Shown here: one piece after another, positions 39,377 through 53,483 of the stretch | How positions within the stretch are numbered: position 1 is the stretch's first letter | Layout: every line of letters starts with the position of its first letter | Source: an uncultured Flavobacteriales bacterium | GTDB lineage: Bacteria > Bacteroidota > Bacteroidia > Flavobacteriales_D > Crocinitomicaceae | Direction of reading: 5' to 3' | Assembly: GCA_903879765.1 (NCBI GenBank) | Contig: CAIRMS010000161.1 | Location: 1-56,757 of the forward strand | Length of the DNA stretch: 56,757 nt | The notes under the pieces: model-generated | Seen by the model: the letters and a program-made list of their open reading frames with translations, nothing else | Told to the model about the DNA's origin: nothing | The model's database searches: none | Made by a program: the position numbers and the translations under genes

Positions 39377-40093
39377 ATGAAATTAGATATCTTAGCTTTT
39401 GCCGCCCATCCCGACGATGTAGAATTATCTGCATCAGGTACTTTGTTGCATTACGCTGCACAAGGAAAGAAAATCGGAATCATTGATTTAACTGAGGGTG
39501 AATTGGGGACAAGAGGTTCTGTTGCTGATCGCTATGCTGAATCAGCTGCAGCAGTTGAACTCATGGGATTAACTATTCGCAAGAACTTGAACATGGGCGA
39601 TGGATTCTTCGAAGTAAATGAAGTAAACAAACGCAAAATCGTTGAACAAATTCGCATTCATAAACCGGAAATCGTTTTCGCCAATTGCTTGAGCGACCGA
39701 CATCCAGATCATGGACGAGCAGGAAAATTAGTGTCCGATGCATGCTTTCTAGCTGGTTTGCGGAAAATCGAAACAATGGTCGATGGTATTTCTTTGGCGC
39801 CACATCGTCCGAGATTAGTATTGCATTACATTCAAGATCACTACGCCCATCCTGATATCGTCATGGATGTAACACCATTCATGGAACAAAAAATAGAGGT
39901 TATTAAAGCGTTCCGCTCACAGTTTTTCGATCCAAATTCTATCGAACCAACGACGCCAATTTCTGGCGAAGAATTTTTTCAATTCATCAAAGGAAGAATG
40001 ATGCAATATGGACGTCCTATTGGAGTTGATTACGCCGAAGGATTTACAGTTACGCGCATTCTTGGTACGAAAGATCTTTTTGGATTAGTTTGA
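39377..40093 (+). CDS. bshB1: bacillithiol biosynthesis deacetylase BshB1 (PIG-L family)
   Basis: MKLDILAFAAHPDDVELSASGT, GIIDLTEGELGTRGS and HPDHGRAG motifs. Confidence 0.8.
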   Translation: MKLDILAFAAHPDDVELSASGTLLHYAAQGKKIGIIDLTEGELGTRGSVADRYAESAAAVELMGLTIRKNLNMGDGFFEVNEVNKRKIVEQIRIHKPEIVFANCLSDRHPDHGRAGKLVSDACFLAGLRKIETMVDGISLAPHRPRLVLHYIQDHYAHPDIVMDVTPFMEQKIEVIKAFRSQFFDPNSIEPTTPISGEEFFQFIKGRMMQYGRPIGVDYAEGFTVTRILGTKDLFGLV

Positions 40094-40097
40094 GGCT

Positions 40098-40231
40098 AAT
40101 GTGCTAATGACTTAATGTGCTAGTGTGCTGGTTAGTTAATGTGCTAATGTGTTAGTGTGAGTAAGCTATCGGAGCATGTCAGTAGCAAATTAGATCATTG
40201 GCACATTAGTCCATTAGCACATTAGTCCATT
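40098..40231. repeat. octamer array A1: 8 forward units (40098-40161), 22-nt spacer, 6 inverted units (40184-40231)
   Basis: Parsed in unbroken 8-nt phase. Forward: aatgtgct aatgactt aatgtgct agtgtgct ggttagtt aatgtgct aatgtgtt agtgtgag. Inverted: agcaaatt agatcatt ggcacatt agtccatt agcacatt agtccatt. Confidence 0.9.
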
Positions 40232-40236
40232 ATTCC

Positions 40237-40244
40237 TACATTTG
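40237..40244 (+). promoter_or_regulatory. -7 promoter box (TAnnTTTG)
   Basis: TACATTTG starts 6 nt after the inverted arm of A1 and ends 4 nt before ATG 40249. Confidence 0.35.
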
Positions 40245-40248
40245 TACC

Positions 40249-40662
40249 ATGAAATCGCTGATTCTTATTTTCTTAAGTACGCTTTTGTTTCTAGGGAACG
40301 TTGGGATTCCTGTGTTTACACATGCTTGTGAAGAAGATGGCATTTTCACTTCGTTTTTCATTAAGCTGCAAAATCATTGTCAAGAAGAACAGTCGGATTT
40401 ACCTCCTTGCTGTCAAAAAGAAAAAAAGAAGAATTGCTGTCACGATGAGAAAACTGTGGTGCAATTGGATGAGAAATACGTTCTTACACATGCTTTTTCC
40501 GTTCCATTTTTTCACGTTTCATTTACCGCGAATCAGCCTATTTCATTTGATTCATACATACTTCTTTCAGAAGTTGTTTCCATTCAAACATGGGACGACC
40601 CACCTCCGCTGAGGAAATACGGTAAAGAATTACTGATCCAAAACTGCGTTTTTCGTATTTGA
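40249..40662 (+). CDS. small Cys-rich membrane-anchored protein (HYC_CC_PP-family-like)
   Basis: N-terminal TM/signal segment, then THAC, PPCC, NCCHDE and DDPPP motifs. It sits upstream of a TonB-dependent receptor. The family name is recalled from memory, not searched. Confidence 0.55.
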   Translation: MKSLILIFLSTLLFLGNVGIPVFTHACEEDGIFTSFFIKLQNHCQEEQSDLPPCCQKEKKKNCCHDEKTVVQLDEKYVLTHAFSVPFFHVSFTANQPISFDSYILLSEVVSIQTWDDPPPLRKYGKELLIQNCVFRI

Positions 40663-40737
40663 AATTCCAATCATCCATACTCTAAACGGACTTGAAAAAT
40701 CAAGTGTTCGTTGCGTATTCATGATTTAATTTTAGCT

Positions 40738-42932
40738 ATGAAACATTATTTTTTAGGATTTCTCCTCATCTGGATGACCTCCAAAACCAATGCACAAATC
40801 AAAGGAGTTGTTCTACGACAAGACTCCACAAAAACTAGTCCCATTGAAAATGCAAAGATTCGTCTTTCCCATTCAAATCAAGGGGTATTTTCCAACAAGG
40901 ATGGACGATTTGAAATAGTTCTTCCCAAAGTTTTACCGGACACCCTGATCATCAGTGCAATGGGTTACTTATCAGACTCCATTGTGGTGACAAAAAATGA
41001 TCGCTTCGTCGCGTTCACTATTTTACTCATTCCGGTTTCGACGAAAACAGAAATTGTCTATCAACTTCGTAAAAATTCCCATCAGATCTCCAAAATGAAA
41101 ACATTACATGTGGAAGAAATTGGATCGGGAGAATTGCGAAAAGCTGCTTGTTGTAATTTATCTGAATCTTTTGAAACAAACGCTTCTGTCGATGTCAATA
41201 TTACCGACGCAGTTTCGGGTGCCAAAAAATCCAACTGATGGGTCTCGATGGTGTTTACACCCAAATTCAATTAGAAAACATTCCTTATTTGCGCGGACTC
41301 GAAAGTTCTTTTGGACTTCAGTCTATTCCTGGAACTTGGATTGAGTCAATACAAATCACCAAAGGAACAGGAAATGTCGTAAACGGCTATGAATCGATGG
41401 CGGGACTCGTGAATTTAGAAATGAAAAAACCGAGTGAAATGGAAAAATTCTATTTTAACGCCTACCAAAATCGCTTTGGACGCTCTGAAATGAATATGAA
41501 TGCAGGAACCAAAATCAATCAAAAATGGAGCACCGGAATACTGGGTCACGCTTCCTCTATGTTCGGAAATATCGATCATAACATGGATGGATTTCGGGAC
41601 ATTCCAATGGGCGATAACGTCGCTTTGATGAATCGCTGGTCTTTTCAAGGAAAAAAAATGGAAGCGCAATTTGGCTTCAATGTTTACCAAGATCGCAAAA
41701 CAGGTGGGCAAACCACTTTCTACCGAGATAATCCAAACGGATACGGAGTGGTGATGAATTCGCGCCATGCCGATGTTTATGCGAAAACAGGGTTCTTTAG
41801 TAAAAAGCCAATGCGGTCAATTGGTGTAGTTTACAACCTGAAATACCAAGCAATGAATGGCGCATTTGGTATACGTGATTTTCAAGGAGAAGAAAAACGC
41901 GTCTATGTGAATGCGATTTACGACGATATAATTGCAACAAGTGATCATAAAGTTAAACTTGGTGCGAGTTTCGTTGGTCTACAAATCCGTCAGCGAGTAC
42001 AAAATTTGGATCAACGTCGAACAGAAATCGTCCCGGGGATTTTTGGGGAATATACCTATACGGGTTCTCGATTAATCACAGTATTAGGAGCGCGTTACGA
42101 TCAACACTTCACCTATGGCGGACAATTCTCGCCTCGAATTCATGCGAAATATGCCTTAACCCAGCGAGCAGATCTACGCATTACGGCTGGAAAAGGTTGG
42201 CGTGTACCAAACTACATGATTGACAATATTTCACTTTTAGCGAATTCCAAAACCTGGATTGCTCCATCGGAAATCAAACCGGAAATATCATGGAATGCTG
42301 GAATTTCTTTAGTGAAAGATTTTACCGTTCTCGAAAAAAATGGGAATATCAGCTTGGACTTCTATCATACACTTTTTCAAAATCAGTTGATTGTTGATCG
42401 TGATGCTGCATTGGATGCGATTGTCTTTCAAAATCTTGCAAACTCATCTTACTCAAATAGTTTTCAGTTAGAAATGTCGTATTCACCCACTAAGAACTTC
42501 GAACTTCGATTTGCCTACAAACATTTAGATGTGAAGGCGTTGTACGATGGTGTAATGCGTCAACAAGTGATGATTCCGAAGAACCGTGGATTCGTTAATC
42601 TCGCCTACCGAACGCGAAATAAACGCTGGGAATTCGATGCTACATGTACGATTTACGGCTCGGGACGTTTACCTGTCATTCTTCAAGCGTCGGGTCTAGA
42701 ACAGCATGATGAACAAAGTTCAGTGTATCCTATGGTCAACTCACAAATTACGCATATTTACAAAAAATGGAATTTTTACCTTGGTGGCGAAAATTTAGCG
42801 AACTTTAGACAATTGAATCCGATTATTGATGCCCAGAATCCTTTTGGAAGTTCCTTCGATGCAAATAGAGTTTGGGGTCCGATAATGGGTTGGAATGTTT
42901 ATGCGGGACTTAGGTATGCGATGAAGGGTTAA
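40738..42932 (+). pseudogene. TonB-dependent receptor (CarboxypepD_reg, plug, barrel) interrupted by a 1-nt frameshift
   Basis: ORF 40711..41238 ends ...TDAVSGAKKSN* and ORF 41238..42932 starts in the plug (MGLDGVYTQIQLENIPYL...). One extra A in the A6 run 41224-41229 would fuse them as ...GAKKIQLMGLDG... ATG 40738 gives a signal peptide. Confidence 0.8.
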
Positions 42933-43079
42933 TGCCCTAGTGTGCTAGTTTGCTAATGTGCTAATTGATTAATGTGCTAATGGACTAATGTGCTAATGTG
43001 CTAATTAATCAATGTGCTAATTTGCCGATGGACTAATGTGCTAGTTACTTAATGTGCTAGTTTAATGTGCTCATGTGGA
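42931..43079. repeat. octamer array A2: 16 forward units in phase (42931-43058), a 5-nt slip, then 2 more units
   Basis: aatgccct agtgtgct agtttgct aatgtgct aattgatt aatgtgct aatggact aatgtgct aatgtgct aattaatc aatgtgct aatttgcc gatggact aatgtgct agttactt aatgtgct. There is no inverted arm. Confidence 0.9.
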
Positions 43080-43118
43080 GGAGAGATAGTGAGAAATGAA
43101 TACTTTTTAAATTTATAT

Positions 43119-43454
43119 ATGATGAAAACAATAACCTTAAGTCTATTCTTTGTGCTATTCAGCGCGCTAAGTTTTGGGCAAAAATCAATGACGAGTCAAA
43201 TTCAGACGAATGCGCAATGTGGTGATTGTAAGGAACGAATCGAAGGGAAATTAAACTATATAAAAGGAATCAAATTTGCAGAACTCGATGACCAGACGAA
43301 AATTGTTACTGTTAAATACGACCCGAGTAAAATTGAACTTCTGACGATCAAGCAAACAATTGCGAAAATTGGTTATGATGCCGATGAGGTGAAAGCGGCT
43401 AAAGAAGACGTGGAGAAATTACCGAAGTGTTGTCAGCCGAATGGACATGAATAA
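43119..43454 (+). CDS. secreted heavy-metal-associated (HMA) domain protein
   Basis: ATG 43119 gives a signal peptide (MMKTITLSLFFVLFSALSFGQ). Has the CGDC metal-binding motif, a ferredoxin-like HMA pattern and a C-terminal CC pair. The track N-terminus reads out of array A2. Confidence 0.8.
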   Translation: MMKTITLSLFFVLFSALSFGQKSMTSQIQTNAQCGDCKERIEGKLNYIKGIKFAELDDQTKIVTVKYDPSKIELLTIKQTIAKIGYDADEVKAAKEDVEKLPKCCQPNGHE

Positions 43455-43564
43455 TGTGCTAATGTGTTAGTTAACTAATGTGCTAATTAACTAATGTGCT
43501 AATGTGCTAATTAACTCATGTGCTAATTAACTTATGGGTTGATGTGCTATTAGACGGGTGTGCT
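43453..43564. repeat. octamer array A3: 14 forward units in phase
   Basis: aatgtgct aatgtgtt agttaact aatgtgct aattaact aatgtgct aatgtgct aattaact catgtgct aattaact tatgggtt gatgtgct attagacg ggtgtgct. It lies between convergent genes. Confidence 0.9.
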
Positions 43565-43589
43565 TCAGCGGAATAAAGAGATATGAGCT

Positions 43590-45425
43590 TTAATCTACGA
43601 TCGTGATGCGTTTCCGTTGTGATCCAATTAAAACGTAGTACATTCCTGGTTGGATTCCTTCTAGATTGATCTGTGTCGAGAAGGTTCCGGAACGTAATTC
43701 TGATCCATTCAAATCGTATAATCGGAAGATTCCAGGAGAAATTCCACTGATGTTCAAGGACTGATTTTCGTTAAGAGGATTTGGATAAACTAAAAACGTT
43801 TCTTCGTATTCGTTCAGCCCTGAATCTACAATGGTCAAATCTATGGTAACTGTGCTATCACAACCATAAATACTCGTGAAAAATTGAGTGTGTAACGCCG
43901 ACGTTGTGTATTCCTGTCCATTCCATGTAAATACATCAAAAACAGTTGAGTCAATTAGCGTACTTGTTATTGGATGAATGGTTAAATTCAAAGCAACAGT
44001 AGAATCGCATCCAGAAATACTTTGTAAGGAATCAATGTATACACCACTTTGCCAAAATGATTGACCATTCCAGCTAAAACTACCACAAGCACTTTCGGTC
44101 ACATTAGTGGTGTATGCTTGGACTACCGTTAAATTTAGTGATACGATAGAATCACATCCAGACATACTTTGCAAGGTATCAATGTAAACACCACTTTGTG
44201 AAAACGATTGTCCATTCCAAACAAAATTTCCACAAGCGCTTTCGTTTACATTGATATTGTAGGCTTGAACAATAGTTAAATTCAAGACAACCGTCGAATC
44301 ACATCCCCAGACAGTTGTTCCCTGAAAAGGATATGTTCCACTTTGAGTGTACGTTTGTCCGTTGAAGCTATAGGAATTACAAGAAGAAACATTCAGTGTA
44401 TTTGCATAGGCTAAATGCTGATTGATACTTAACACCACCGCTGGACTTTGTCCGCAGGTATTTTGTGCAAGAACGCTCACTGTACCACTCACAAAACTTG
44501 GGCTAAACAATAAATTGAGTGTTGTTCCGATGCTGCTTCCCGTTGCACCATTGGGGGTTGTCCATACATAGGAAGTTGCACCACTTACGGGCGTAATCGT
44601 ATACGATTCTGATCCATCATAGCAAAAGTGTGCCGCACCTGTAATTCCCGTTGGGGAAGATGGTGCTGTATTTATGACAACAGTTACTGCTAATCGATTA
44701 GTGGATTCTACACCGCTCACTGTTTGAGATGCATAATATGTTGTTCCATTGTTCAGAACCGAAGTTCCATTTAAAGGCGTTCCACCTGTAGCACTTGCAT
44801 ACCATTGAATAGACGTTCCTGTTGCCGATAATTGGGAAAGCACAGCGCCAGTACAAAAGGTTTGTGTAGAAGATCCTGTTGGTGCCGCTGGTGTAGGTGG
44901 TGGCGGGACCAAAGTGAAATTCGCAGTGGTAATTCCACGATTAGAAGATCCGTGGTAACTATAACTAAAACCATTACTTCCTGCTCTCGCCCAAATTAGG
45001 CCTAGTGAACCTGTGGAAGCGGTAAAAATATGGTCGTTCGCATCTCCTGTATTTAAAGCTCTTGTAGCAATAACCGTTCGAACACCTGATGCAACTGCGT
45101 CACTAACAATGGTCCAGTTTTGCTGTGGATCTGCAGTTGGAGCGGAATATCCTCCTATACTTGCATCAAAGGAGTTCAATGTTCCAGAGGTGTGAACCCC
45201 AACAACATCCTCTCCATTACCCATACTCGTTGCATTAAAACCAAGTGCAAACCATCTCGCAGAAGGTCCTGTTAGGGTTAGTGTCACTTGAGTACCGACA
45301 TCGATTTTTGCCGTCATAGCTAATCCTGCGGTAGAACTCAAACTAACAACACCTGTTGTATATGTTTGGGCTTTAACAATGGTCGCCGCAAATAAAAGAA
45401 TCAGAAATAATAGGTTATTTTTCAT
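43590..45425 (-). CDS. T9SS-secreted surface protein (N-terminal DOMON-like domain, Ig-like region, 4 tandem Cys-containing repeats, T9SS C-terminal sorting domain)
   Basis: Signal peptide, then four copies of the C..(Y/F).WNGQ.(Y/F)..SG.Y....S..GCDS.V.LNLT(I/V) repeat. C-terminal LVYPNPLNE...GMYYVLIGSQRKRITIVD sorting domain. Confidence 0.8.
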   Translation of the reverse strand: MKNNLLFLILLFAATIVKAQTYTTGVVSLSSTAGLAMTAKIDVGTQVTLTLTGPSARWFALGFNATSMGNGEDVVGVHTSGTLNSFDASIGGYSAPTADPQQNWTIVSDAVASGVRTVIATRALNTGDANDHIFTASTGSLGLIWARAGSNGFSYSYHGSSNRGITTANFTLVPPPPTPAAPTGSSTQTFCTGAVLSQLSATGTSIQWYASATGGTPLNGTSVLNNGTTYYASQTVSGVESTNRLAVTVVINTAPSSPTGITGAAHFCYDGSESYTITPVSGATSYVWTTPNGATGSSIGTTLNLLFSPSFVSGTVSVLAQNTCGQSPAVVLSINQHLAYANTLNVSSCNSYSFNGQTYTQSGTYPFQGTTVWGCDSTVVLNLTIVQAYNINVNESACGNFVWNGQSFSQSGVYIDTLQSMSGCDSIVSLNLTVVQAYTTNVTESACGSFSWNGQSFWQSGVYIDSLQSISGCDSTVALNLTIHPITSTLIDSTVFDVFTWNGQEYTTSALHTQFFTSIYGCDSTVTIDLTIVDSGLNEYEETFLVYPNPLNENQSLNISGISPGIFRLYDLNGSELRSGTFSTQINLEGIQPGMYYVLIGSQRKRITIVD

Positions 45426-45939
45426 CGGATTTAAATATTTTGTTAAGCTTTTCGTCGTTATATAAAATCAAAAGTTCCTTGATGGATTTTCCATTTTGAT
45501 CAAGAATTTTCATGTTTGGATTTCCCATTAACATTCTTTCTACCAACTCATACCTTCTTAGACTCATAGCAAAATGTAACGGTGTTCCAAATTGAGAAAA
45601 TTGACAAGTATCGTTCAAAGAAACACCCTTTTGAAGTAAAAGTTCGAAAATCTCAAGGTTATTTTTATAAATCACTCCATAAACTGCAGAACCTTCTGTA
45701 AAACATGTTTTAATATCTGCGCCACGTTCCACTAAAAGTTTAGCCACCTCGTTATTTCCGCGGTAAGCAGCTAGTAAAAATGGAGATAATCCTTGCTCAG
45801 AAAGTTGATTGACCTGATTAGGTTGTTCATCCAAAAGCTTTTTCATCGCGACAACATCTCCTGTACGTGCTATTTCGTGAATTGATTGCCCGTAAGATAC
45901 AACGCTGAGGAATAGAGAAATGAATAGTAACTTAATCAT
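45415..45939 (-). CDS. secreted ankyrin-repeat protein
   Basis: Signal peptide (LSVVSYGQ) and ANK consensus (SPFLLAAYRGNNEVAKLLVERGADI, TPLHFAM). 11-nt overlap with the downstream T9SS gene. Confidence 0.85.
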   Translation of the reverse strand: MIKLLFISLFLSVVSYGQSIHEIARTGDVVAMKKLLDEQPNQVNQLSEQGLSPFLLAAYRGNNEVAKLLVERGADIKTCFTEGSAVYGVIYKNNLEIFELLLQKGVSLNDTCQFSQFGTPLHFAMSLRRYELVERMLMGNPNMKILDQNGKSIKELLILYNDEKLNKIFKSDEK

Positions 45940-45956
45940 TGTGTAAAAATAAGGAT

Positions 45957-46274
45957 AATGTGCTAATGATTTAATGTGCTAATGATTTAATGTGCTAATG
46001 GCTTAGTGTGCTAGTTGTCCAATGTGCTAATGTGCTAGTTGTCCAATGTGCTAATTGCTTAGTGTGCTAGTTATTTAATGTGCTAATTTGCTAATTGCTT
46101 AATGTGCTAGTTATTTAATGTGCTAATTTGCTAATTGCTTAATGTGCTAGTTATTTAATGTGCTAATGTGCCAGTTAGACAATGTGCTAGTTGTTTTATT
46201 TCGTGGCGGGAGCACATTAATCCATTGGTAAATTAGCACATTAGATCATTGCTACATTAGTACATTGATACATT
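45957..46274. repeat. octamer array A4: 30 forward units in unbroken phase (45957-46196), 14-nt spacer, 8 inverted units (46211-46274)
   Basis: Parsed by eye with no indel over 240 bp. Contains an exact 40-bp duplication (46077-46116 = 46117-46156) and a 16-bp duplication (45957-45972 = 45973-45988). It sits in the divergent region between the ankyrin operon and purF. Confidence 0.92.
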
Positions 46275-46279
46275 ATCAC

Positions 46280-46287
46280 TATCTTTG
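46280..46287 (+). promoter_or_regulatory. -7 promoter box (TAnnTTTG) for purF
   Basis: TATCTTTG starts 6 nt after the inverted arm of A4 and lies 20 nt upstream of ATG 46307. Confidence 0.4.
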
Positions 46288-46306
46288 CCGCAAACTTAAA
46301 CGAACC

Positions 46307-48208
46307 ATGAGTGATCCGATAAAACATGAATGTGGAATAGCTCTTTTAAGGCTGAAAAAACCTTTGGAATATTACCTGGAAAAGTACGGTACGGCACTGT
46401 ATGGCATCAACAAGATGCACCTACTCATGGAAAAACAACACAATCGTGGTCAAGATGGCGCTGGAATCGCGAATATTAAGTTCGATATGGAACCGGGACA
46501 ACGGTACATTTCTAGAACACGATCCATAAAAAAGAATCCAACACAGGATATTTTTGATCAAATCAATGGGAAATTCCAACAAATTCAACAAGAAAATCCT
46601 GCCCATCTGAAGGATGTTAATTACCTAAAACAAAATGCTGGATTCACTGGAGAATTGTTTTTGGGACACCTTCGTTACGGAACTTTTGGACGAAACTCCA
46701 TTGAAAGTTGTCACCCATTTTTACGTCAAAACAACTGGATTACTCGCAACTTGGTTGTGGCTGGAAATTTCAATTTAACAAACGTCGACGAGTTGTTTCA
46801 AAACTTGGTCAACTTGGGTCAACATCCGAAAGAAAAAAGTGACACAGTAACGGTTTTAGAAAAAATAGGCCATTTCCTTGATGTAGAGAATGACGACTTA
46901 TATGCTCATTACAAATCACTTGGCTATTCTAAAGATCAAATATATGCTCGCATCGCGAAAGAAGTTAATTTGGTTAAGATCTTGAAAAAAGCATCCGAAG
47001 TTTGGGATGGTGGATATGCCATGGCAGGGCTACTTGGTCATGGTGACGCATTTGTCTTACGAGATCCAAATGGCATTCGTCCGGCATTTTGGTATGAAGA
47101 TGATGAAATTTGTGTTGTTGCATCTGAACGACCAGTGATTCAAACTGCCTTCAACTTAACCAGTGATCAAATCCATGAACTTCAACCGGGACACGCATTA
47201 ATCGTGCGCAAAAACGGTGAAGTAAAAGAAGAGATGATTAATGCTCCTAGAGAGATTAAAAAATGTTCTTTTGAACGCATCTATTTCTCCCGCGGATCAG
47301 ATACTGACATTTACAAAGAACGAAAAGCTTTAGGAAGACTAATCGTTGATCAAGTACTAAGGACGGTTAATCACGATTTCGACAATAGTGTATTTTCATT
47401 CATTCCAAATACAGCAGAAGTTTCCTTTTACGGATTGATCAAAGGATTGGAAGAGAATTTGAATCAACAAAAAATCAAGCAAATTCAAACGCTTGGAAAA
47501 GATGCGAGTACAGAACAGCTAGCAGAAATCATCAACCGTCGTGCACGTATCGAAAAGATTGCAATTAAGGATGCCAAGTTGCGTACCTTCATCACACAAG
47601 ATGACTCACGTGACGATCTTGTTGCGCATGTATATGACATTACCTATGGAAGTGTGCGTCCAGGAACAGATAACCTCATCGTAATTGATGATAGTATCGT
47701 ACGTGGAACAACTTTAAAACAAAGTATCTTACGAATTCTTGATCGTTTGTCACCGAAGAAAATCGTTGTTGTTTCGTCTGCACCTCAAATTCGTTACCCG
47801 GATTGTTATGGAATCGATATGGCGAAAATGGGTGATTTCATCGCATTCGAGGCCGCTATTCAATTGTTGCGTGACCGAAAAATGGACCGTGTAATAAAAG
47901 AAGTATACGAAAAATGTATAGAGCAAGTAAACCTACCAAAGGAACAAGTTCGGAATTTCGTGAAAGAAATTTATGCGCCATTCAGCAACGAAGAAATTTC
48001 CGCGAAAATTGCTGAATTGTTGACTCCTCCGACGATCAAAGCGGAAGTTGAAATCGTTTTCCAAACAGTAGAAAACCTACACATTGCTTGTCCAAATCAC
48101 CTTGGAGACTGGTACTTCACAGGAGATTATCCAACACCTGGTGGAAACAAAGTGGTGAATAAGGCATTTATCAATTGGGTAGAGAAGAGGAACGAGCGAG
48201 CATATTAA
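46307..48208 (+). CDS. purF: amidophosphoribosyltransferase (long Bacteroidota-type class II glutamine amidotransferase)
   Basis: MSDPIKHEC|GIA Ntn-Cys after a short propeptide, and the PRPP-binding motif LIVIDDSIVRGTT. ATG 46307 is preferred over the track extension that reads out of array A4. Confidence 0.88.
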   Translation: MSDPIKHECGIALLRLKKPLEYYLEKYGTALYGINKMHLLMEKQHNRGQDGAGIANIKFDMEPGQRYISRTRSIKKNPTQDIFDQINGKFQQIQQENPAHLKDVNYLKQNAGFTGELFLGHLRYGTFGRNSIESCHPFLRQNNWITRNLVVAGNFNLTNVDELFQNLVNLGQHPKEKSDTVTVLEKIGHFLDVENDDLYAHYKSLGYSKDQIYARIAKEVNLVKILKKASEVWDGGYAMAGLLGHGDAFVLRDPNGIRPAFWYEDDEICVVASERPVIQTAFNLTSDQIHELQPGHALIVRKNGEVKEEMINAPREIKKCSFERIYFSRGSDTDIYKERKALGRLIVDQVLRTVNHDFDNSVFSFIPNTAEVSFYGLIKGLEENLNQQKIKQIQTLGKDASTEQLAEIINRRARIEKIAIKDAKLRTFITQDDSRDDLVAHVYDITYGSVRPGTDNLIVIDDSIVRGTTLKQSILRILDRLSPKKIVVVSSAPQIRYPDCYGIDMAKMGDFIAFEAAIQLLRDRKMDRVIKEVYEKCIEQVNLPKEQVRNFVKEIYAPFSNEEISAKIAELLTPPTIKAEVEIVFQTVENLHIACPNHLGDWYFTGDYPTPGGNKVVNKAFINWVEKRNERAY

Positions 48209-48343
48209 TGTGCTAATGTGCTAATTGTCTAATGTGCTATTGACCTAATGGGCTAATTTGCTAGTTGTTTAATGTGCTAATTGTCTAATGTGCTATGGTT
48301 ACAATGTGCTAGTTGTTTTAATGTACTGATGTGCTTATATGCT
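48207..48343. repeat. octamer array A5: 14 forward units in phase (48207-48318), a 1-nt slip, then 3 more units
   Basis: aatgtgct aatgtgct aattgtct aatgtgct attgacct aatgggct aatttgct agttgttt aatgtgct aattgtct aatgtgct atggttac aatgtgct agttgttt, then aatgtact gatgtgct tatatgct. Confidence 0.9.
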
Positions 48344-48418
48344 GGTGGAGTTCCTATTGATTTTGATGATTATGTGACGTTTAGAGAATAAAATTCAACT
48401 TCTTGCGTTAAATGATTC

Positions 48419-48769
48419 ATGACTGATTCTAAGAACCCATTACTCACTAAATCTTTTGATTTTGCACTATTGATTGTGTCGTTTTGTCAAGAGTTACAAT
48501 CCCAAAGAAGTTACGTTATTGCACATCAACTGTTGAAATCAGGTACTTCTGTTGGAGCAAATATTCGTGAAGCTCAGCATGCAGAGTCTAGAGCGGATTT
48601 CATTCACAAACTGAAAATTGCCTCCAAGGAATGTGAGGAAACAACCTATTGGCTCGAAATCTGTCAAGCAAGTTATCCCATGAATTGTGATACACTCATT
48701 AACGAATCACTCCAAATCGGTAAACTACTCAGTCGCATCATCTCCACTGCAAAACGAAATAGATCCTAA
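48419..48769 (+). CDS. four-helix-bundle protein (23S rRNA intervening-sequence protein / Avd-like family)
   Basis: 116 aa with the GTSVGANIREAQHAESRADFIHKLKIASKECEETTYWLEI signature of the family. Confidence 0.85.
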   Translation: MTDSKNPLLTKSFDFALLIVSFCQELQSQRSYVIAHQLLKSGTSVGANIREAQHAESRADFIHKLKIASKECEETTYWLEICQASYPMNCDTLINESLQIGKLLSRIISTAKRNRS

Positions 48770-48816
48770 ACTAATTGGCAAATTAGTCCATTAGTCCATT
48801 AGCACATTACTCCATA
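48769..48816. repeat. octamer array A6: about 6 inverted units
   Basis: aactaatt ggcaaatt agtccatt agtccatt agcacatt actccata. It begins on the last base of the TAA stop of the four-helix-bundle gene. Confidence 0.8.
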
Positions 48817-48842
48817 ATCCCTACTTTTATAAAAAATTAAAC

Positions 48843-50045
48843 TTGTCACTTATCTACTCCTTTTTTATTCGATGCTACGGCGTGTTGATTCACGTTGCTT
48901 CTCGGTTCAATCCGAAGGCGAAGGCCTGGGTAGAAGGACGACAACAATGGCAAGAGAAATTACGGAAACAAATTCCAAAGGAACGCAAGGTGTTGTGGTT
49001 TCATTGTGCTTCGCTAGGCGAGTTTGACCAGGGGTCACCCTTGATGAAGTCTATGAAGGAAGCCGACCCAAGTTTATTCCTATTGGTAAGTTTCTTCTCT
49101 CCATCGGGAATGGAACATTACCAAAAACGTGAAAAAATCGTTGATGCTGCTTGCTACCTTCCGCTGGACACACTCCAAAATGCACGGACGTTTGTCCAAA
49201 TAGTACAGCCACAAAAAGCGGTTTTCGTGAAATATGAATTCTGGCCAAATTTCCTTAGAGCTTTGGATGAAAATAACATCGAAACAGTAGCTGTATCGGC
49301 AATTTTCCGTCCCTCACAGCTCTATTTTCGTTGGTACGGTGGATTTTTCAGAAAGGCATTGAAACGCATTCATCATTTTTACGTGCAAAACGAAGAAAGT
49401 GCGAAGTTATTGAAATCGATAGGTATTCATCAAAGCACAGTTTCTGGCGACATGCGTTACAAACGTGTGGTACAAGCGAAGGAAATAGCAATGCAGACTA
49501 CCAATGAACTTCTTGCATGCTTTACCTCGGGTTCCATTACACTCATACTTGGGAGTTCTTGGCCTAAAGAGGAAGAAATCGTGTGTACGGCTTTTCCGGA
49601 GCTCGGAGCAACTAAATTGATCATCGCTCCACACGATGTGAGCGAGCAGCATATTGCATCCATTCAAGCAGCGTTTCCTTCAGCTTTGCGCTATACTCAG
49701 TTAGAAGTGCGTCGTGATGAACAGCAACTTTTGGATGCCCAGATCCTAATCATCGATTGCATTGGACAATTAAGTGCCGCTTACCGCTATGGAACAATTG
49801 CTTTTATCGGCGGTGGTTTTACCGGAAGTCTACACAATATCCTAGAACCTGCCGTTTATGGACTACCACTCCTATTTGGTCCAAAACATAGAAAATTTCC
49901 CGAAGCAGATTTATTTCTTGAAAAAGGCTTCGCCCTTGAGGTTAACAATCCCACAGATTTTCACAAAGCGTTCAACTCGCTACTTACTAAAGTATCTTCA
50001 CTGCGTCCAGAAATGGAATCGTTTGTTGAAAGTCAAATTGGTTAA
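48843..50045 (+). CDS. waaA: 3-deoxy-D-manno-octulosonic acid (Kdo) transferase
   Basis: N-terminal anchor, RFNPKAKAWVEGR and WFHCASLGEFDQGSPL motifs. TTG start, with no nearby in-frame ATG. Confidence 0.88.
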   Translation: MSLIYSFFIRCYGVLIHVASRFNPKAKAWVEGRQQWQEKLRKQIPKERKVLWFHCASLGEFDQGSPLMKSMKEADPSLFLLVSFFSPSGMEHYQKREKIVDAACYLPLDTLQNARTFVQIVQPQKAVFVKYEFWPNFLRALDENNIETVAVSAIFRPSQLYFRWYGGFFRKALKRIHHFYVQNEESAKLLKSIGIHQSTVSGDMRYKRVVQAKEIAMQTTNELLACFTSGSITLILGSSWPKEEEIVCTAFPELGATKLIIAPHDVSEQHIASIQAAFPSALRYTQLEVRRDEQQLLDAQILIIDCIGQLSAAYRYGTIAFIGGGFTGSLHNILEPAVYGLPLLFGPKHRKFPEADLFLEKGFALEVNNPTDFHKAFNSLLTKVSSLRPEMESFVESQIG

Positions 50046-50258
50046 TGTGCTAATGGACTAATGTGCTAATGGACTAATGTGCTAATATGCTAATTGGCTA
50101 ATGTGCTAATGGACTAGTTGCTTAATTTGCTAATGGACTAATTTGCTTGTTGATTGATGTTCTAGATACTTTCAGGCGCAGTGGAAATCCAATGGGCACA
50201 TTAGTACATCGAATCATTAGCACATTGATTAATTAACACATTGAATCATTAGCACATT
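50044..50258. repeat. octamer array A7: about 15 forward units (50044-50163), 31-nt spacer, 8 inverted units (50195-50258)
   Basis: Forward: aatgtgct aatggact aatgtgct aatggact aatgtgct aatatgct aattggct aatgtgct aatggact agttgctt aatttgct aatggact aatttgct... Inverted: ggcacatt agtacatc gaatcatt agcacatt gattaatt aacacatt gaatcatt agcacatt. Confidence 0.9.
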
Positions 50259-51018
50259 AATTATAATAATAATCCTTCGGCTGCTTCGAGTAAAATGGGA
50301 TGTACCAACCAATGCGAATACCTGTCTGAAGATCGAGGCGCAAAGCGGTGGACACAGGAATGTCCGGTTGGTCGTAGTTGATGGTGCGACGATTATACGT
50401 CAGACCTTGTTGGCAGTAGATACCTGCATAAAAGTTTAATGGTCCCCCATTGTTGAGGAAGGAATAACCTACAAACTGATGGAAGTTGATTCCGGTAGTC
50501 ATTCGGTCGTAGCCACGTTTGTATGTTAATTCGATTTGGGGAACCACTTGATCGTTGGTTTCGATGCGTAAGTGATGTAACAAGTAACCTGCGCCAGCGT
50601 GAACAAGAATTCCTGAATTGGCGTTTTTCTTTCCAGTTGGAAATAAGCGTCCAACGCTGAAGTTCGCATTAAATCCACGTGGAAAAACGAGGACGGTCGC
50701 CTTGGTTCCATTGACATCTGTAATGTTACCCTTGTCATCTAATAAGTGATCAAAGATTCCATTCATTTTAACGTTGTTGCCAAAGATGAAATTCGCATCA
50801 ACGCCGAAATACCATTGGCTTTGAAGTTTGTATCCTGCAGAAAAGCCAAGGTTATTGAGATAACCATATCTCGCTAATAAATCTCCGCCTGGTAGATTTC
50901 CTCCCCAATGAATTCCAACTAGAGGTGTGCTTATTGATTCATTTTTCACTTCTCCTTGTGCAAAAACAAGGTATTGCATTGAAAATACTAAACCGATTAA
51001 AACACTAAATATTTTCAT
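50257..51018 (-). CDS. outer-membrane beta-barrel protein of unknown function, co-transcribed with wzc
   Basis: Signal peptide (QYLVFAQ), alternating beta-strand pattern, and ATGA overlap with wzc. Confidence 0.5.
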   Translation of the reverse strand: MKIFSVLIGLVFSMQYLVFAQGEVKNESISTPLVGIHWGGNLPGGDLLARYGYLNNLGFSAGYKLQSQWYFGVDANFIFGNNVKMNGIFDHLLDDKGNITDVNGTKATVLVFPRGFNANFSVGRLFPTGKKNANSGILVHAGAGYLLHHLRIETNDQVVPQIELTYKRGYDRMTTGINFHQFVGYSFLNNGGPLNFYAGIYCQQGLTYNRRTINYDQPDIPVSTALRLDLQTGIRIGWYIPFYSKQPKDYYYN

Positions 51019-53483
51019 TTTCTCTTTCTAAGAAATCGTGAGTACATGCTAAAAATGAAACCTCTATTTTGTTTTGGAGAATCTAAATATTCGTTTCCAT
51101 AACCATAGCCGTAGCCGTATCCATATCCTGAACCATATCCATATCCTGAGCCATAACCGTAACCATAACTCGATTTTTTCATATCTACAGCATTAACTAA
51201 ACACGCCATTTTAGCGAATTTTTTGTCTTGGTACAAACTTGCTGGTAAATTCAACATACCGCAATCAATCAATTCAGCACGAACAACATAGATTACCATA
51301 TCTGCAAGTTTACTAATGTGTAAGGAATCTGAAACCAAGGCCACAGGAGCTGTATCTAGGATAACATAATCATATTTTTTTCTAGCTTCTGAGATAAGTT
51401 GTGTTAATCTATCTCGCATAAGTAATTCTGTTGGATTCGGAGGGATATCACCAGAAATGATGTAACTAACATTTGGATTTCCAGGATCTTTTATCGTTAG
51501 ATCATCAAACGTTAAATCTGGATTCACGATATAATTGGTTACCCCAACAGTGTGATTCATATCAATGTAACGTGCAATTTTCGGCGCTCGTAAATCTAAA
51601 CCGATAATTACCGCCGTTTTATTACCTTGAGCTAAGGTGTGGCAAAGATTAATCGAGATAAATGTTTTACCCTCTTTGGCGATGGATGATGTTACTAAAA
51701 TCACTTTTGCTTCATGTTGATCTTCATCAATCATAAAGTTCAGATTGGAACGAACCATGCGGAATGCTTCGGCAATATGGGTGCGCGCATTCTTGGTTAT
51801 GACAATTTTTCTTTGATCCTCGGGTCCTTTTGGAATTTCACCTAACACTGGAAGTTTAAACTTGAGTAAATCTTGTGATCCGTGTACTTTTGTGTCTAAT
51901 AGATTACGTAGGTAAACAACTGCTATTGGGAATAGTAATCCGAGTAAAAAACTAGCCAAATAAATGACACTTCTTTTAGGTGAGATTGGATTAATATTTG
52001 TGTTTGGTTCTTGTATGATTTTTGTATTACCAATGGACGAAGCCGCCTTAATTTCGTTTTCTTCGCGTTTTTGTAATAAAAAGACATACAACGTTTCCTT
52101 AATTTGCTGCTGACGCTCTATATCTCGGTATTCACGCTCGAATCCTGGAACAGCAGCAATTCTTCCTTCGTAACGATTTACCTGGTCATTTAATGACTTT
52201 ATTGTTATTCTTATACGCGATTCTGTTGAACGAAGTCCTTCTGTTAAGGAATAACGAAGTCCTTCAATCTGATCATCAATTTTTTGAATACTTGGATTTT
52301 TATTGCTGGATGTTTTTGACAATCGAAGTCGGTCCAAAACCAAGCGATTGTATTGAGCCGTTATTGCCACAACACTTTCATCCTCAAAACCGAGATTTGC
52401 TGGAAGCAATTCTCCTGGATTTACATTTTTCCGCATGTACTCCTCCAAATATTGGCAAAGATTTAATTGAACGGATTGGGTTATCAATTCCTTTTCGATT
52501 TCATCTCTTTTGGCAACAAATGATTGTCCATCCGTTAAAACATCAACGATTTCATGACGTGACTTAAAATTCTCTGCACTTTTCTCGACGTCACTCAATT
52601 CATCTGACAAGAAGCGCATGCGTTCATTTATGAAATCACTCGTATTTCGGGCAATTTGACTTTGATCTTTTATTTTTTCCTCCTTGTGGAATTGCATCAT
52701 AGACCAAATGATGTCTTCGTTTTTCTCAACGACGGGACCTTTGATTGTGATATCCACCAAATCAGATCCACGGTCTTTGCTATCAGGCATGGATAATTCG
52801 ATTATCGAATTGAGTTCTTCGACAACCATTTTCAATGGACGCAATTGAATGATAAACTCATCCTCAATAAAATACCTCCAAAAATTAGTGGTTTTTTCAA
52901 CTTTAACAATACCCGTTTTCGTTACGATAGGAGTTCCAAAAAGGTAAGTGCCGATTTTATTCTTTTCTCCTTCAACCAATTCAAATTTCGTTTTGGAAAG
53001 TATGCGAATGCGGAATTCGGCTTTAACATCTCTCCAAGTTGAATCCATCTTTAATGGGACAATAAAAAACGGCTCAACTTTATATACATCCGTTTTACGT
53101 ATCCCTGTTCTTCTACCGAGGATATACGTTCGTTGCTGTAAGTGTAGTTTTTCTGAAATTCCGGATAAAATGCCCGGTGTTTTCATCATAGCCATTTCAT
53201 TTCCTAACTTACTCCCTTGTGGACCGACACCCAAAGCAGAGAACATAGACAATTCTTCCATCACATTCTCTTCTTGATCATGGAATAGAATCTGCGCCTT
53301 TGTTTCAAAGATATTTGTGCTGTATCGTAGGTAAACGTATGAAGAAAATAAAGCGATTCCTATTGACAATAAAAACCAGGGCCAAATGCGTAAATAGCGA
53401 AATAAAATCCCTTTTAGTTGAACCGTTCCTTGGTCCTCAAGATCCATATCGAAGTTTCCCTCTGATTTTGTTTCTAAACTCAT
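51015..53483 (-). CDS. wzc: polysaccharide co-polymerase / tyrosine autokinase (Wzc-like)
   Basis: Two TM segments flank a coiled-coil Wzz-like domain. C-terminal kinase P-loop SSIAKEGKT, Walker B YVILDTAP, and the terminal Tyr cluster SSYGYGYGSGYGYGSGYGYGYGYGYGNEY. Confidence 0.9.
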   Translation of the reverse strand: MSLETKSEGNFDMDLEDQGTVQLKGILFRYLRIWPWFLLSIGIALFSSYVYLRYSTNIFETKAQILFHDQEENVMEELSMFSALGVGPQGSKLGNEMAMMKTPGILSGISEKLHLQQRTYILGRRTGIRKTDVYKVEPFFIVPLKMDSTWRDVKAEFRIRILSKTKFELVEGEKNKIGTYLFGTPIVTKTGIVKVEKTTNFWRYFIEDEFIIQLRPLKMVVEELNSIIELSMPDSKDRGSDLVDITIKGPVVEKNEDIIWSMMQFHKEEKIKDQSQIARNTSDFINERMRFLSDELSDVEKSAENFKSRHEIVDVLTDGQSFVAKRDEIEKELITQSVQLNLCQYLEEYMRKNVNPGELLPANLGFEDESVVAITAQYNRLVLDRLRLSKTSSNKNPSIQKIDDQIEGLRYSLTEGLRSTESRIRITIKSLNDQVNRYEGRIAAVPGFEREYRDIERQQQIKETLYVFLLQKREENEIKAASSIGNTKIIQEPNTNINPISPKRSVIYLASFLLGLLFPIAVVYLRNLLDTKVHGSQDLLKFKLPVLGEIPKGPEDQRKIVITKNARTHIAEAFRMVRSNLNFMIDEDQHEAKVILVTSSIAKEGKTFISINLCHTLAQGNKTAVIIGLDLRAPKIARYIDMNHTVGVTNYIVNPDLTFDDLTIKDPGNPNVSYIISGDIPPNPTELLMRDRLTQLISEARKKYDYVILDTAPVALVSDSLHISKLADMVIYVVRAELIDCGMLNLPASLYQDKKFAKMACLVNAVDMKKSSYGYGYGSGYGYGSGYGYGYGYGYGNEYLDSPKQNRGFIFSMYSRFLRKRK

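Follow-up and report, generated by a model that had tools for sequence, protein, structure and literature searches.

A repetitive extragenic palindrome (REP) is one imperfect palindrome, 20-40 nt long, that has a conserved head and is tied to a RAYT transposase gene. The attC site of integrons is an imperfect palindrome that follows each cassette gene, often with the stop codon inside it and the next gene just beyond. Miniature inverted-repeat transposable elements, or MITEs, and foldback elements include Neisseria's Correia elements and, in eukaryotes, the Foldback transposons, the long inverted arms of which consist of tandem sub-repeats. Short tandem intergenic repeats comprise the long simple sequence repeats (LSSRs), with units of 5-11 nt, and the STRR heptamers of cyanobacteria (PMC4679880). 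Arrays of the heptamer TAACTGA occur in Beggiatoaceae, Cyanobacteria and five Bacteroidetes (MacGregor 2015, PMC4679880) and sit a few nucleotides from start codons and, reversed, after stop codons (PMC4679880). The intervening sequence (IVS) of the Coxiella burnetii 23S rRNA combines a stem, short tandem heptamers and an S23p (PF05635) reading frame; it is transcribed within the host transcript, excised by RNase III and regarded as selfish and horizontally acquired (PMC4990558). In this study, we analyzed arrays of an 8-nt unit, consensus TAATGTGC, in a stretch of 56,757 nt from an uncultured Flavobacteriales bacterium of the Crocinitomicaceae (contig CAIRMS010000161.1 of assembly GCA_903879765.1, positions 1 to 56,757, forward strand), hereafter the window. 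Our results indicate that this family is widespread in Bacteroidota and their phages, patchily spread and probably mobile. No description of TAATGTGC arrays was found in the searchable literature, which does not prove that none exists.

Octamer arrays are anchored by one end to coding boundaries

The window holds seven intergenic arrays between 40.1 and 50.3 kb, in which TAATGTGC units alternate with TAATnnnn or TAGTnnnn variants. TRF reported arrays of period 8 and its multiples, and TAATGTGCTA is present in 35 copies against 0.07 expected. A sequence-only reading of this DNA had claimed that the arrays start on the TAA stop codon of five genes, and all five junctions did read sense codon|TAA|TG. 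These were ggt|TAA|TGCCC at the TonB-dependent receptor (TBDR) gene (42930-42932), where the first unit, TAATGCCC, matches at 5/8 positions; gaa|TAA|TGTGC at the HMA-domain gene (43452-43454); tat|TAA|TGTGC at purF (48206-48208); ggt|TAA|TGTGC at waaA (50043-50045); and, on the minus strand, aat|TAA|TGTGC at the barrel gene (50257-50259). The three exceptions it listed were also found as described: bshB1 ends in TGA, followed by GGC and the first unit at 40097; the stop of the four-helix gene lies 8 nt ahead of an inverted arm; and about 25 nt separate the inner end of the HMA array from the stop of the type IX secretion system (T9SS)-sorted protein gene. Its claim that placement is not random was likewise borne out, as five of five stops at +0 has P = 0.004 if +0, +8 and +16 are equally likely for an overlapping array.

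To place the window in context, we assembled array loci of other genomes by a scan with a query of two perfect units plus TA, taking one genome per species, which gave at least 120 loci. The array loci listed come from Bacteroidales, Chitinophagales, Sphingobacteriales, Flavobacteriales, Saprospiraceae and Cytophagales, with a few from Ignavibacteria and Chlorobiota and a few bins under other taxonomic labels; a viral scan for arrays gave 28 loci. Carriers with closed or nearly closed genomes include the 2.87-Mb contig Ga0620986_00020 (L230), Adhaeribacter sp. BT258 (GCA_016623615), a Rufibacter assembly (GCA_001647285), Hymenobacter fastidiosus (GCA_039539565) and Niastella populi. Similarity places the window itself among Flavobacteriales, near Crocinitomicaceae. 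The counts below cover 97 outer and 82 inner arm ends and 152 arms, from the array loci of other genomes together with the window. The outer end of an arm was defined as the point where reading TAATGTGC begins (the TAAT end), and the inner end as the opposite one. Distances were taken to the stop of the co-directional open frame at outer ends and to the convergent stop at inner ends, and genes in loci other than the window were approximated as open frames of at least 100 codons.

The distances from stop to first unit were not arbitrary and peaked at offset 0. The outer end lay exactly on the upstream stop in 27/97 cases with the window and 23/91 without it, while the inner end, our internal control, was never found at the equivalent position (0/82; Fisher P = 1e-8). 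Stops within -8 to +16 nt were present at 65/97 outer ends compared with 3/82 inner ends (Fisher P = 2e-20). Among the 97 outer ends, 27 had offset 0, 11 had +8, 6 had +16 and 20 had -4 to -7, and offset 0 exceeded +8 and +16 (27:11:6, P = 3e-4). For most genes ending in TGA or TAG, the array sits 1-4 nt downstream. Outer ends with no adjacent stop lay within 7 nt of a divergent start codon in 20/57 cases and within 16 nt in 29/57, with a mode of 5 nt. Adjacent arms formed 16 facing pairs and no back-to-back pair (P = 3e-5). These results showed that each arm is fixed by its TAAT end to the boundary of a coding sequence, which may be a stop or a start, that it reads TAATGTGC away from that gene, and that paired arms of one spacer always face each other and can pair. 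The usual anatomy outside the window is a stop, a forward arm, a unique center of 50-100 nt, an inverted arm, and a stop or start. Arrays range from 3 to more than 30 units, and a facing partner within 300 nt was detectable, at the thresholds used here, for 47/152 arms.

The window arrays follow this pattern. Pfam assigned the flanking genes to a PIG-L/bshB1-type deacetylase, a TonB-dependent receptor, an HMA-domain protein, a T9SS-sorted protein, an ankyrin protein, PurF, a PF05635 four-helix-bundle protein and WaaA; the barrel gene had no match in the Pfam search. Array A0 has a forward arm of 8 units (40097..40160, plus strand) that starts 3 nt past the TGA of the PIG-L/bshB1 gene (39377-40093), and an inverted arm (40185..40232, minus strand) whose outer end is 16 nt from the ATG of orf137 (40249). 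A1 consists of a forward arm only (42930..43077, plus strand), whose degenerate first unit holds the TBDR stop. The forward arm of A2 (43452..43563, plus strand) holds the HMA stop in its first unit, and its inner end is the one that faces the T9SS stop. In A3, the forward arm has 31 units (45956..46203, plus strand), and the start codon of the minus-strand ankyrin gene (45415-45939) lies 16 nt from its outer end; the outer end of the inverted arm (46212..46275, minus strand) is 31 nt from the purF ATG (46307). The forward arm of A4 (48206..48343, plus strand) holds the purF stop in its first unit. It is followed by the four-helix-bundle gene (48419..48769, plus strand; PF05635, the 23S rRNA intervening-sequence protein family) and by a facing inverted arm (48778..48817, minus strand), the inner end of which is 8 nt past the four-helix stop and the outer end about 25 nt before the waaA start (48843). 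In A5, the first unit of the forward arm (50043..50146, plus strand) holds the waaA stop, and the first minus-strand unit of the inverted arm (50196..50259, minus strand) holds the stop of the barrel gene.

The folding of two-arm arrays exceeds that of shuffled sequence by far (z = -5.7 to -7.2) and pairs their outermost units: the A0 hairpin has -61 kcal/mol (z = -7.2), the A5 hairpin -72.8 kcal/mol (z = -6.8), and the fold of A3 a z of -5.7. No intrinsic terminator, that is, a G+C-rich stem with a T run, was found in the array-bearing spacers, and the sole convincing site in 34.0-53.9 kb follows gcvP. A search of the window against Rfam 15 gave no match at the gathering score and one chance-level hit (E = 0.09), and no rRNA was found in the window.

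The promoter box of Bacteroidetes at -7 has the consensus TAnnTTTG. Matches to it lie in the gap between the A0 inverted arm and the orf137 ATG (TACATTTG, 40237-40244) and in that between the A3 inverted arm and the purF ATG (TATCTTTG, 46280-46287), the latter conserved in the relatives L046, L088 and L230. The putative -33 element of both promoters would fall within the arm. We dropped the idea that the unit itself is a -7 box, as the alignment fits just 3/6 specified positions and the -7-like boxes sit outside the arms. The forward unit may also resemble the elemental pause consensus of RNA polymerase (G at -10, TG|TG).

The seven arrays occupy eight consecutive intergenic spacers within 10 kb (40097-50259), and the remaining 46 kb has none; the syntenic region of the relative Ww7 (L046, L051, L073) is likewise array-rich. 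Two further repeats of the window are unrelated to the arrays, a 147-nt tandem repeat inside the T9SS-sorted protein gene (43977-44306) and a 6/18-nt repeat close to the 3' end of a GNVR/AAA_31 gene (51097-51169). At 41224-41238, the TonB-dependent receptor is split at an A run into frames of 175 and 564 residues; the run is A6 in the window, and the single 732-residue receptor of L230 needs A7. The split may reflect a pseudogene, phase variation at the homopolymer or an error in sequencing.

Orthologues, proposed insertion and turnover

To compare C-termini, we used syntenic relatives (L046/L051/L073, L088 and L230) with 75-85% nucleotide identity to the window, and a second set of 80 metagenome loci (0.84 Mb) chosen by PurF similarity alone. 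PurF ends in ...RAY* (RPY* in one) at the identical codon in 51/51 relatives examined (66-95% identity), nearly all of them array-less, and the sequence past the stop is unrelated in all but the closest. The purF stop is thus native, with no trimming. A look-up of the exact PurF sequence of the window found no record. The barrel protein ends in ...YYYN* or its equivalent at the same codon in the window, L046, L088 and 7/9 array-less relatives, and the other 2/9 have a two-residue extension; its stop among the relatives is TAA, TAG or TGA. The HMA protein ends differently: three relatives have NGH*, encoded as TAG-A-CAATGTGC, while the window has NGHE* and L230 has NGHD*, both with TAA|TGTGC, indicating that its stop has been relocated into the first unit. 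The last residues and the stop of WaaA also vary, with TGA in L046 and L088 and TAA within the first unit in the window and L230. At the TBDR gene, A1 was found only in the window and in L230, the relative nearest to it in gene arrangement. The four other close relatives end in KQSEE*, KQKTDN* or KQSAEAEKARARNSAKK* with TGA and no array, the window ends in MKG* within the degenerate unit, L230 ends in MKEK* 6 nt ahead of the array, and distant relatives stop at the K or bear short variable tails. A1 was thus gained in the lineage of the window and L230. By this comparison, the stops of PurF and the barrel gene are native and simply shared with the first unit, and those of HMA, WaaA and TBDR were taken over by it. 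The suggestion that arrays supply the stop and trim C-termini therefore stood for the latter three genes and failed for PurF and the barrel protein.

The clearest sign of insertion came from phages. An HK97-like siphovirus family from one metagenome (L121-L148, IMG/VR contigs of 3300045988; L229), in which genes for terminase subunits, portal, protease, major capsid, major tail and amidase were identified, bears two-arm arrays. In L130, arrays fill 6 of about 17 co-directional gene junctions; TerS, portal, major capsid and major tail are among the genes that they follow. Upstream of TerS, the empty alleles read ...TTTC ACACTATG GCACGC..., the ATG of which starts TerS. In filled alleles, a foldback array of about 110-170 nt lies between ACACTATG and ACTCTATG, and further alleles read ACAGAATG ... 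ACACTATG; the flanks are 95-100% identical. This site thus displays what appears to be an 8-bp target duplication, equal in length to the unit. The start codon is kept in the right-hand copy of the duplication, and the arm comes to stand 5 nt from the ATG, the modal spacing. The L130 allele has remodelled flanks, with the upstream frame ending AAT AAT TAA T|AAATGTGC; in the other alleles the upstream frame continues 35 nt into the arm. Phage units often start with A, G or C instead of T, and TAA is not a conserved part of them.

The nearest cultured relative of these phages, Bacteroides phage Bacuni_F1 (TerL 68% identical), has no arrays. Its TerS/TerL and portal/protease junctions overlap, and the metagenomic phages have hairpin arrays at both. 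Bacuni_F1 also holds a diversity-generating retroelement that includes a four-helix Avd protein. When array A3 was compared with GenBank phages by BLAST, no match was obtained, possibly because of the low-complexity filter. A comparable junction was seen in the bacterial relatives, where the barrel stop overlaps the waaA start as TAATG or TGATG in 7/9 array-less genomes and the clade of the window has arrays at this place; the ancestral barrel/waaA junction was, by this comparison, a TAATG stop/start overlap. Finally, a two-arm array in L098 is flanked at both ends by an exact 8/8 direct repeat, AAGTAATG, which includes the upstream TAA. We counted this case solely as an 8/8 flank repeat and not as a duplicated stop/start overlap, as its downstream 'gene' has just 18 codons.

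Presence/absence polymorphism was thus found at the TerS site, at A1 (window and L230 only) and at the purF 3' end, where the array belongs to one clade. Arrays were present in 2/80 PurF-selected loci, both of them 95%-identity relatives. As occurrence is patchy and the same octamer recurs phylum-wide and in phages, horizontal spread fits better than an ancient host function.

Array interiors change faster than their ends. Between the window and L230/L231 they differ almost wholly in unit order and number, and the junctions (tat|TAA|TGTGC and so on) are unchanged; a fixed junction with a changing interior was also seen in comparisons with L046, L088 and L149. Each window array has its own higher-order period, with array-specific local repeats of 16, 24, 40 and 56 nt, which points to local duplication. 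Arrays are thus gained and lost among close relatives, and their interiors turn over fast by local duplication. Genome-specific unit 'dialects' were tried as a sign of exchange between loci and proved weak, as the window gave 0.12 within and 0.13 between genomes; the sharing of unit variants stood out in phage L130 alone (0.49 within vs 0.34 between).

Genes between arrays are rearranged as well. Compared with L046, L088 and the outgroups L151-L185, in which waaA (48843-50045) is co-directional with the barrel gene and convergent with purF, this gene has the inverse orientation in the window and L230, and each arm is still attached to its gene. This outcome is as expected from recombination between oppositely oriented arms, and suggests that waaA was inverted in this way. 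The T9SS-ankyrin pair (43590-45939), bounded by A2 and A3, is absent from L046, where the HMA and purF arms share one spacer. The gain of the four-helix gene is a third change that coincides with arrays.

Other small repeats occur at the same places in the relatives. Small G+C-rich hairpins, for example GTCCCGAGCCTTCGGGAT and TTCCGCTGCGGCGGAG, are nested in arrays of L088 (purF 3' end), L230 (11684-11699), L231 (~950-970), L064 and L051, and look like a second, tiny inserted element. Other short-unit repeats occupy post-stop positions in L149/L150 (T9SS), L088 (barrel), L150/L088 (purF, HMA) and L232/L236; they include (CAGTGAT)n heptamers, TAGTGAC heptamers whose first TAG is the stop, and a repeat of about 19 nt, GAGAAACAGAGCG.

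The four-helix-bundle gene was examined in a third set of loci, picked purely by similarity to its protein. The window protein has 116 residues and matches PF05635 (E = 2.5e-22) and PDB 2RLD (E = 3e-25), and at the purF locus its gene is present in the window, L230 and L231 only. PF05635 genes lie between facing repeat arms at 9/9 insertion sites examined (the window and eight others), and among the array-selected loci (1.17 Mb) so do 4/4 full-length homologues, including that of the window. TAATGTGC-type arms stand on both sides of the gene at a CoA-transferase A/B junction (L235, L242), a TldD/PmbA junction (L237), a MetRS/tRNA-Arg junction (L238, tRNA confirmed) and an ArsC/ACR3 junction (L241). 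At a thioredoxin/DsbD junction (L232, L236), the arms surrounding it are of another unit (TTGGAAAT/ATTTCCAA). The upstream stops read TAA|TGTGC (L235, L237, L242), TGA|TGTGT (L238) or TGA directly followed by TAATGTGC (L241), and the next start is 0-5 nt past the inverted arm; in L242 the last A of the arm is the A of the ATG. In L238 (1888-1999), the inverted arm after the four-helix gene ends 4 nt before the tRNA-Arg(CCT) gene, showing that arms can abut RNA genes besides coding sequences.

The PF05635 protein (116 aa) is the only recurrent cargo between arms. We tentatively consider that forward arm, PF05635 gene and inverted arm may together be the complete form of an unrecognised class of mobile hairpin element, kin in design to the S23p intervening sequences, a possibility to which we give limited confidence. 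The abundant gene-less octamer arrays would then be non-autonomous derivatives. Its insertion would fall exactly between a stop and the start that follows, at TAATG-like junctions, where its terminal units would restore TAA on one side and could restore ATG on the other (TAA|TGTGC ... GCACATT|ATG in L242). It would ride host operon transcripts and spread among Bacteroidota lineages, partly on phages. The four-helix protein, which is related to the Avd protein of diversity-generating retroelements, would serve it as a nucleic-acid-binding factor for mobility or maintenance.

Explanations for the stop-codon junctions

On balance, we lean towards a mobile or expanding family of polar repeats whose unit sequence lets the first unit double as a stop codon. 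A polar, foldback-type octamer family would have colonised the short intergenic spacers of Bacteroidota, of some Ignavibacteria and Chlorobiota, and of at least one family of their phages. An array would arrive as a discrete insertion at a compact junction, often a TAATG-like stop/start, and expand afterwards. Its first unit would either merge without cost with the native TAA (PurF, barrel gene) or take over as the stop once the native stop or tail was lost (HMA, WaaA, TBDR). Because 8 is not a multiple of 3 and the unit starts with TAA (or, in variants, TAG or TGA), an array supplies a stop in every forward frame within 24 nt. Offset 0 follows because an arm adjoining a gene can share the native TAA with the protein unchanged, and offsets of 0, +8 and +16 because the loss of a native stop costs at most 5 residues. 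The excess of offset 0 fits both the retention of native TAA and insertion at TAATG-like junctions, and elements may accumulate at compact stop/start junctions because insertions there are harmless. The exact TAA|TGTGC junction would then be a by-product of the sites at which the element survives and of the unit sequence, and no evidence for a dedicated function after the stop.

Several observations weigh against the mobile-repeat account. Flanking 8-bp repeats were not generally detectable, as 5 of 52 non-redundant two-arm arrays had at least 7/8 matches against 3.1 expected (P = 0.19), and because of this the case for target duplication rests on one polymorphic site and one exact case. Between arms in the genome fragments examined, the frames are ordinary housekeeping genes, and neither a transposase nor another mobility gene was found among them. 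As only 47/152 arms are partnered, foldback insertion needs frequent loss or decay of one arm. The array-less purF relatives do not have TAATG after the stop and so give no sign of a target preference at that junction, and the evidence for genome-wide homogenisation of unit variants is weak. Arrays persist at the same junctions over ~80% nucleotide identity and, in a phage, sit after capsid and tail genes, which would also fit a selected function.

Such a function, which we regard as less likely though still a serious alternative, would reside in an RNA or DNA element placed right after the stop: in the transcript, (UAAUGUGC)n with any facing (GCACAUUA)n would form a long stem with its base at the stop and just ahead of the next start. 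The stem could serve RNase III-type processing or mRNA stabilisation, substitute for a terminator, or couple translation, in which case a ribosome terminating at the stem base would melt the part that covers the next start. The strong folding of two-arm arrays with paired outermost units, the seven array spacers of the window without a canonical terminator where gcvP has one, the conservation of junctions in relatives despite interior change, the tight stop-stem-start spacing (mode 5 nt before the ATG) and the phage arrays after TerS, portal, major capsid and major tail genes all agree with this explanation. It is opposed by the detection of a partner for 47/152 arms, the absence of arrays from 78/80 PurF-selected loci and from Bacuni_F1, and the spread of array lengths from 3 to over 30 units. 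In addition, the A3 arms lie in a divergent promoter region with no preceding stop, arms also abut starts, and a canonical terminator follows the array in L044, L074 and L096. A selected role at the RNA level and the mobile-repeat account are not mutually exclusive.

Growth in place by replication slippage, as in long simple sequence repeats, would need no insertion: arrays would be seeded at stops and spread up to constrained sequence. This explains the array-specific repeats of 16, 24, 40 and 56 nt, the very fast change of unit number and order between close relatives and the lack in the window of a genome-wide set of common unit variants, and short tandem heptamers beside starts and stops are known in other bacteria (PMC4679880). 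We nevertheless consider it improbable, given that distant orders and phages have the same octamer consensus although arrays occur patchily, that symmetric slippage does not predict the strict polarity with a single anchored end, and that the TerS site is discretely filled or empty with an 8-bp duplication.

A cut-and-paste transposon with a TTAA or TA target (piggyBac-like or IS630/mariner-like) that lands in the stop TAA is very improbable: 4/5 window junctions read TTAA|TGTGC and removal of A5 would give ggTTAAtt, two overlapping convergent stops, but the HMA junction is ATAA, T precedes TAA in just ~10/23 cases from other genomes, genes ending in TGA or TAG have arrays 1-4 nt downstream, arms abut start codons too, the A0 and A3 flanks have no TTAA, and the sole clean duplication is the 8-bp ACACTATG, TA itself being part of the unit. 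The target specificity proposed by the sequence-only reading thus survives in altered form, as an 8-bp duplication that ends in the ATG of the next gene and as the TAATG junction, and is not supported for TTAA, with no TAA or TTAA target-site duplication seen. UAAUG might also permit termination-reinitiation through Met-Cys mini-frames, but variable units lose the ATG and some arms lie where no ribosome arrives.

If the mobile-repeat account is true, the intergenic DNA of a major bacterial phylum and of some of its phages is shaped by a large repeat family that has apparently not been described, and this would explain why many genes there seem to end within a repeat. The repeat could capture stops and short C-terminal tails, affecting gene calling and orthologue comparison, and arrays would mark hot spots of inversion, deletion and gene insertion. 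It would also give a genomic context to the widespread PF05635 genes outside diversity-generating retroelements, and may link them to rRNA intervening sequences. Because arrays break short-read assemblies, recognising them matters for the reconstruction of genomes from metagenomes.

Comparison with known systems

The arrays are not REPs or bacterial interspersed mosaic elements (BIMEs), intrinsic terminators, attC sites or members of an Rfam family. Like attC sites, they can form an imperfect palindrome right behind a gene, with its stop codon inside and the next gene just beyond, and they separate gene blocks that are gained, lost and rearranged. However, an integrase, an attI context and R/L core sites are lacking; each site is a tandem array, and the flanks are housekeeping genes in conserved order and both orientations. 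Like the REP/BIME (REPIN) sequences of Proteobacteria, the arrays are extragenic, lie at gene 3' ends near the stop, form facing hairpin pairs and are hot spots of recombination, but their unit is a non-palindromic tandem octamer, and no RAYT-like gene was seen in the loci examined.

Of the known systems, MITEs and foldback elements come closest, together with the short tandem intergenic repeats. Like the former, the arrays are non-coding and multi-copy, with variable inverted arms around a unique center that sometimes holds a gene; facing arms form terminal inverted repeats (16 facing vs 0 back-to-back pairs), copies are polymorphic for presence and absence, one apparent case of target duplication was found, and inversions and deletions appear to be promoted. 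They differ in that the arms are built of nothing but 8-nt units, just one arm can be detected in most copies, target duplications do not show up in general, and a cognate transposase was not found between arms in the genome fragments examined. With the 23S rRNA IVS they share stem-forming inverted flanks that enclose a PF05635 gene (48206-48817 in the window, and eight further sites). The IVS, however, occupies helix 25 or 45 of the 23S rRNA, from which RNase III excises it, whereas the host sites of the arms are protein-coding or gene/tRNA junctions and most arrays have no gene.

Finally, the arrays consist of head-to-tail units in the 5-11-nt range beyond chance expectation, and lie in intergenic DNA beside starts and stops with an orientation tied to the gene, as do LSSRs and STRRs. 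As in the LSSR, STRR and TAACTGA repeats, a tandem unit of 7-8 nt with stop triplets lies by starts or after stops, in opposite orientation between these settings; the patchy phylogeny suggests horizontal spread, lengths change by whole units, and a role in rearrangement is suspected. The (CAGTGAT)n and TAGTGAC heptamers that follow stops in relatives of the window are a further likeness to TAACTGA. What sets the present arrays apart from these repeats is the octamer TAATGTGC, the paired facing arms, the quantified anchoring of one end, the insertion polymorphism with an 8-bp duplication, the abundance in a phage family and the recurrent PF05635 gene.

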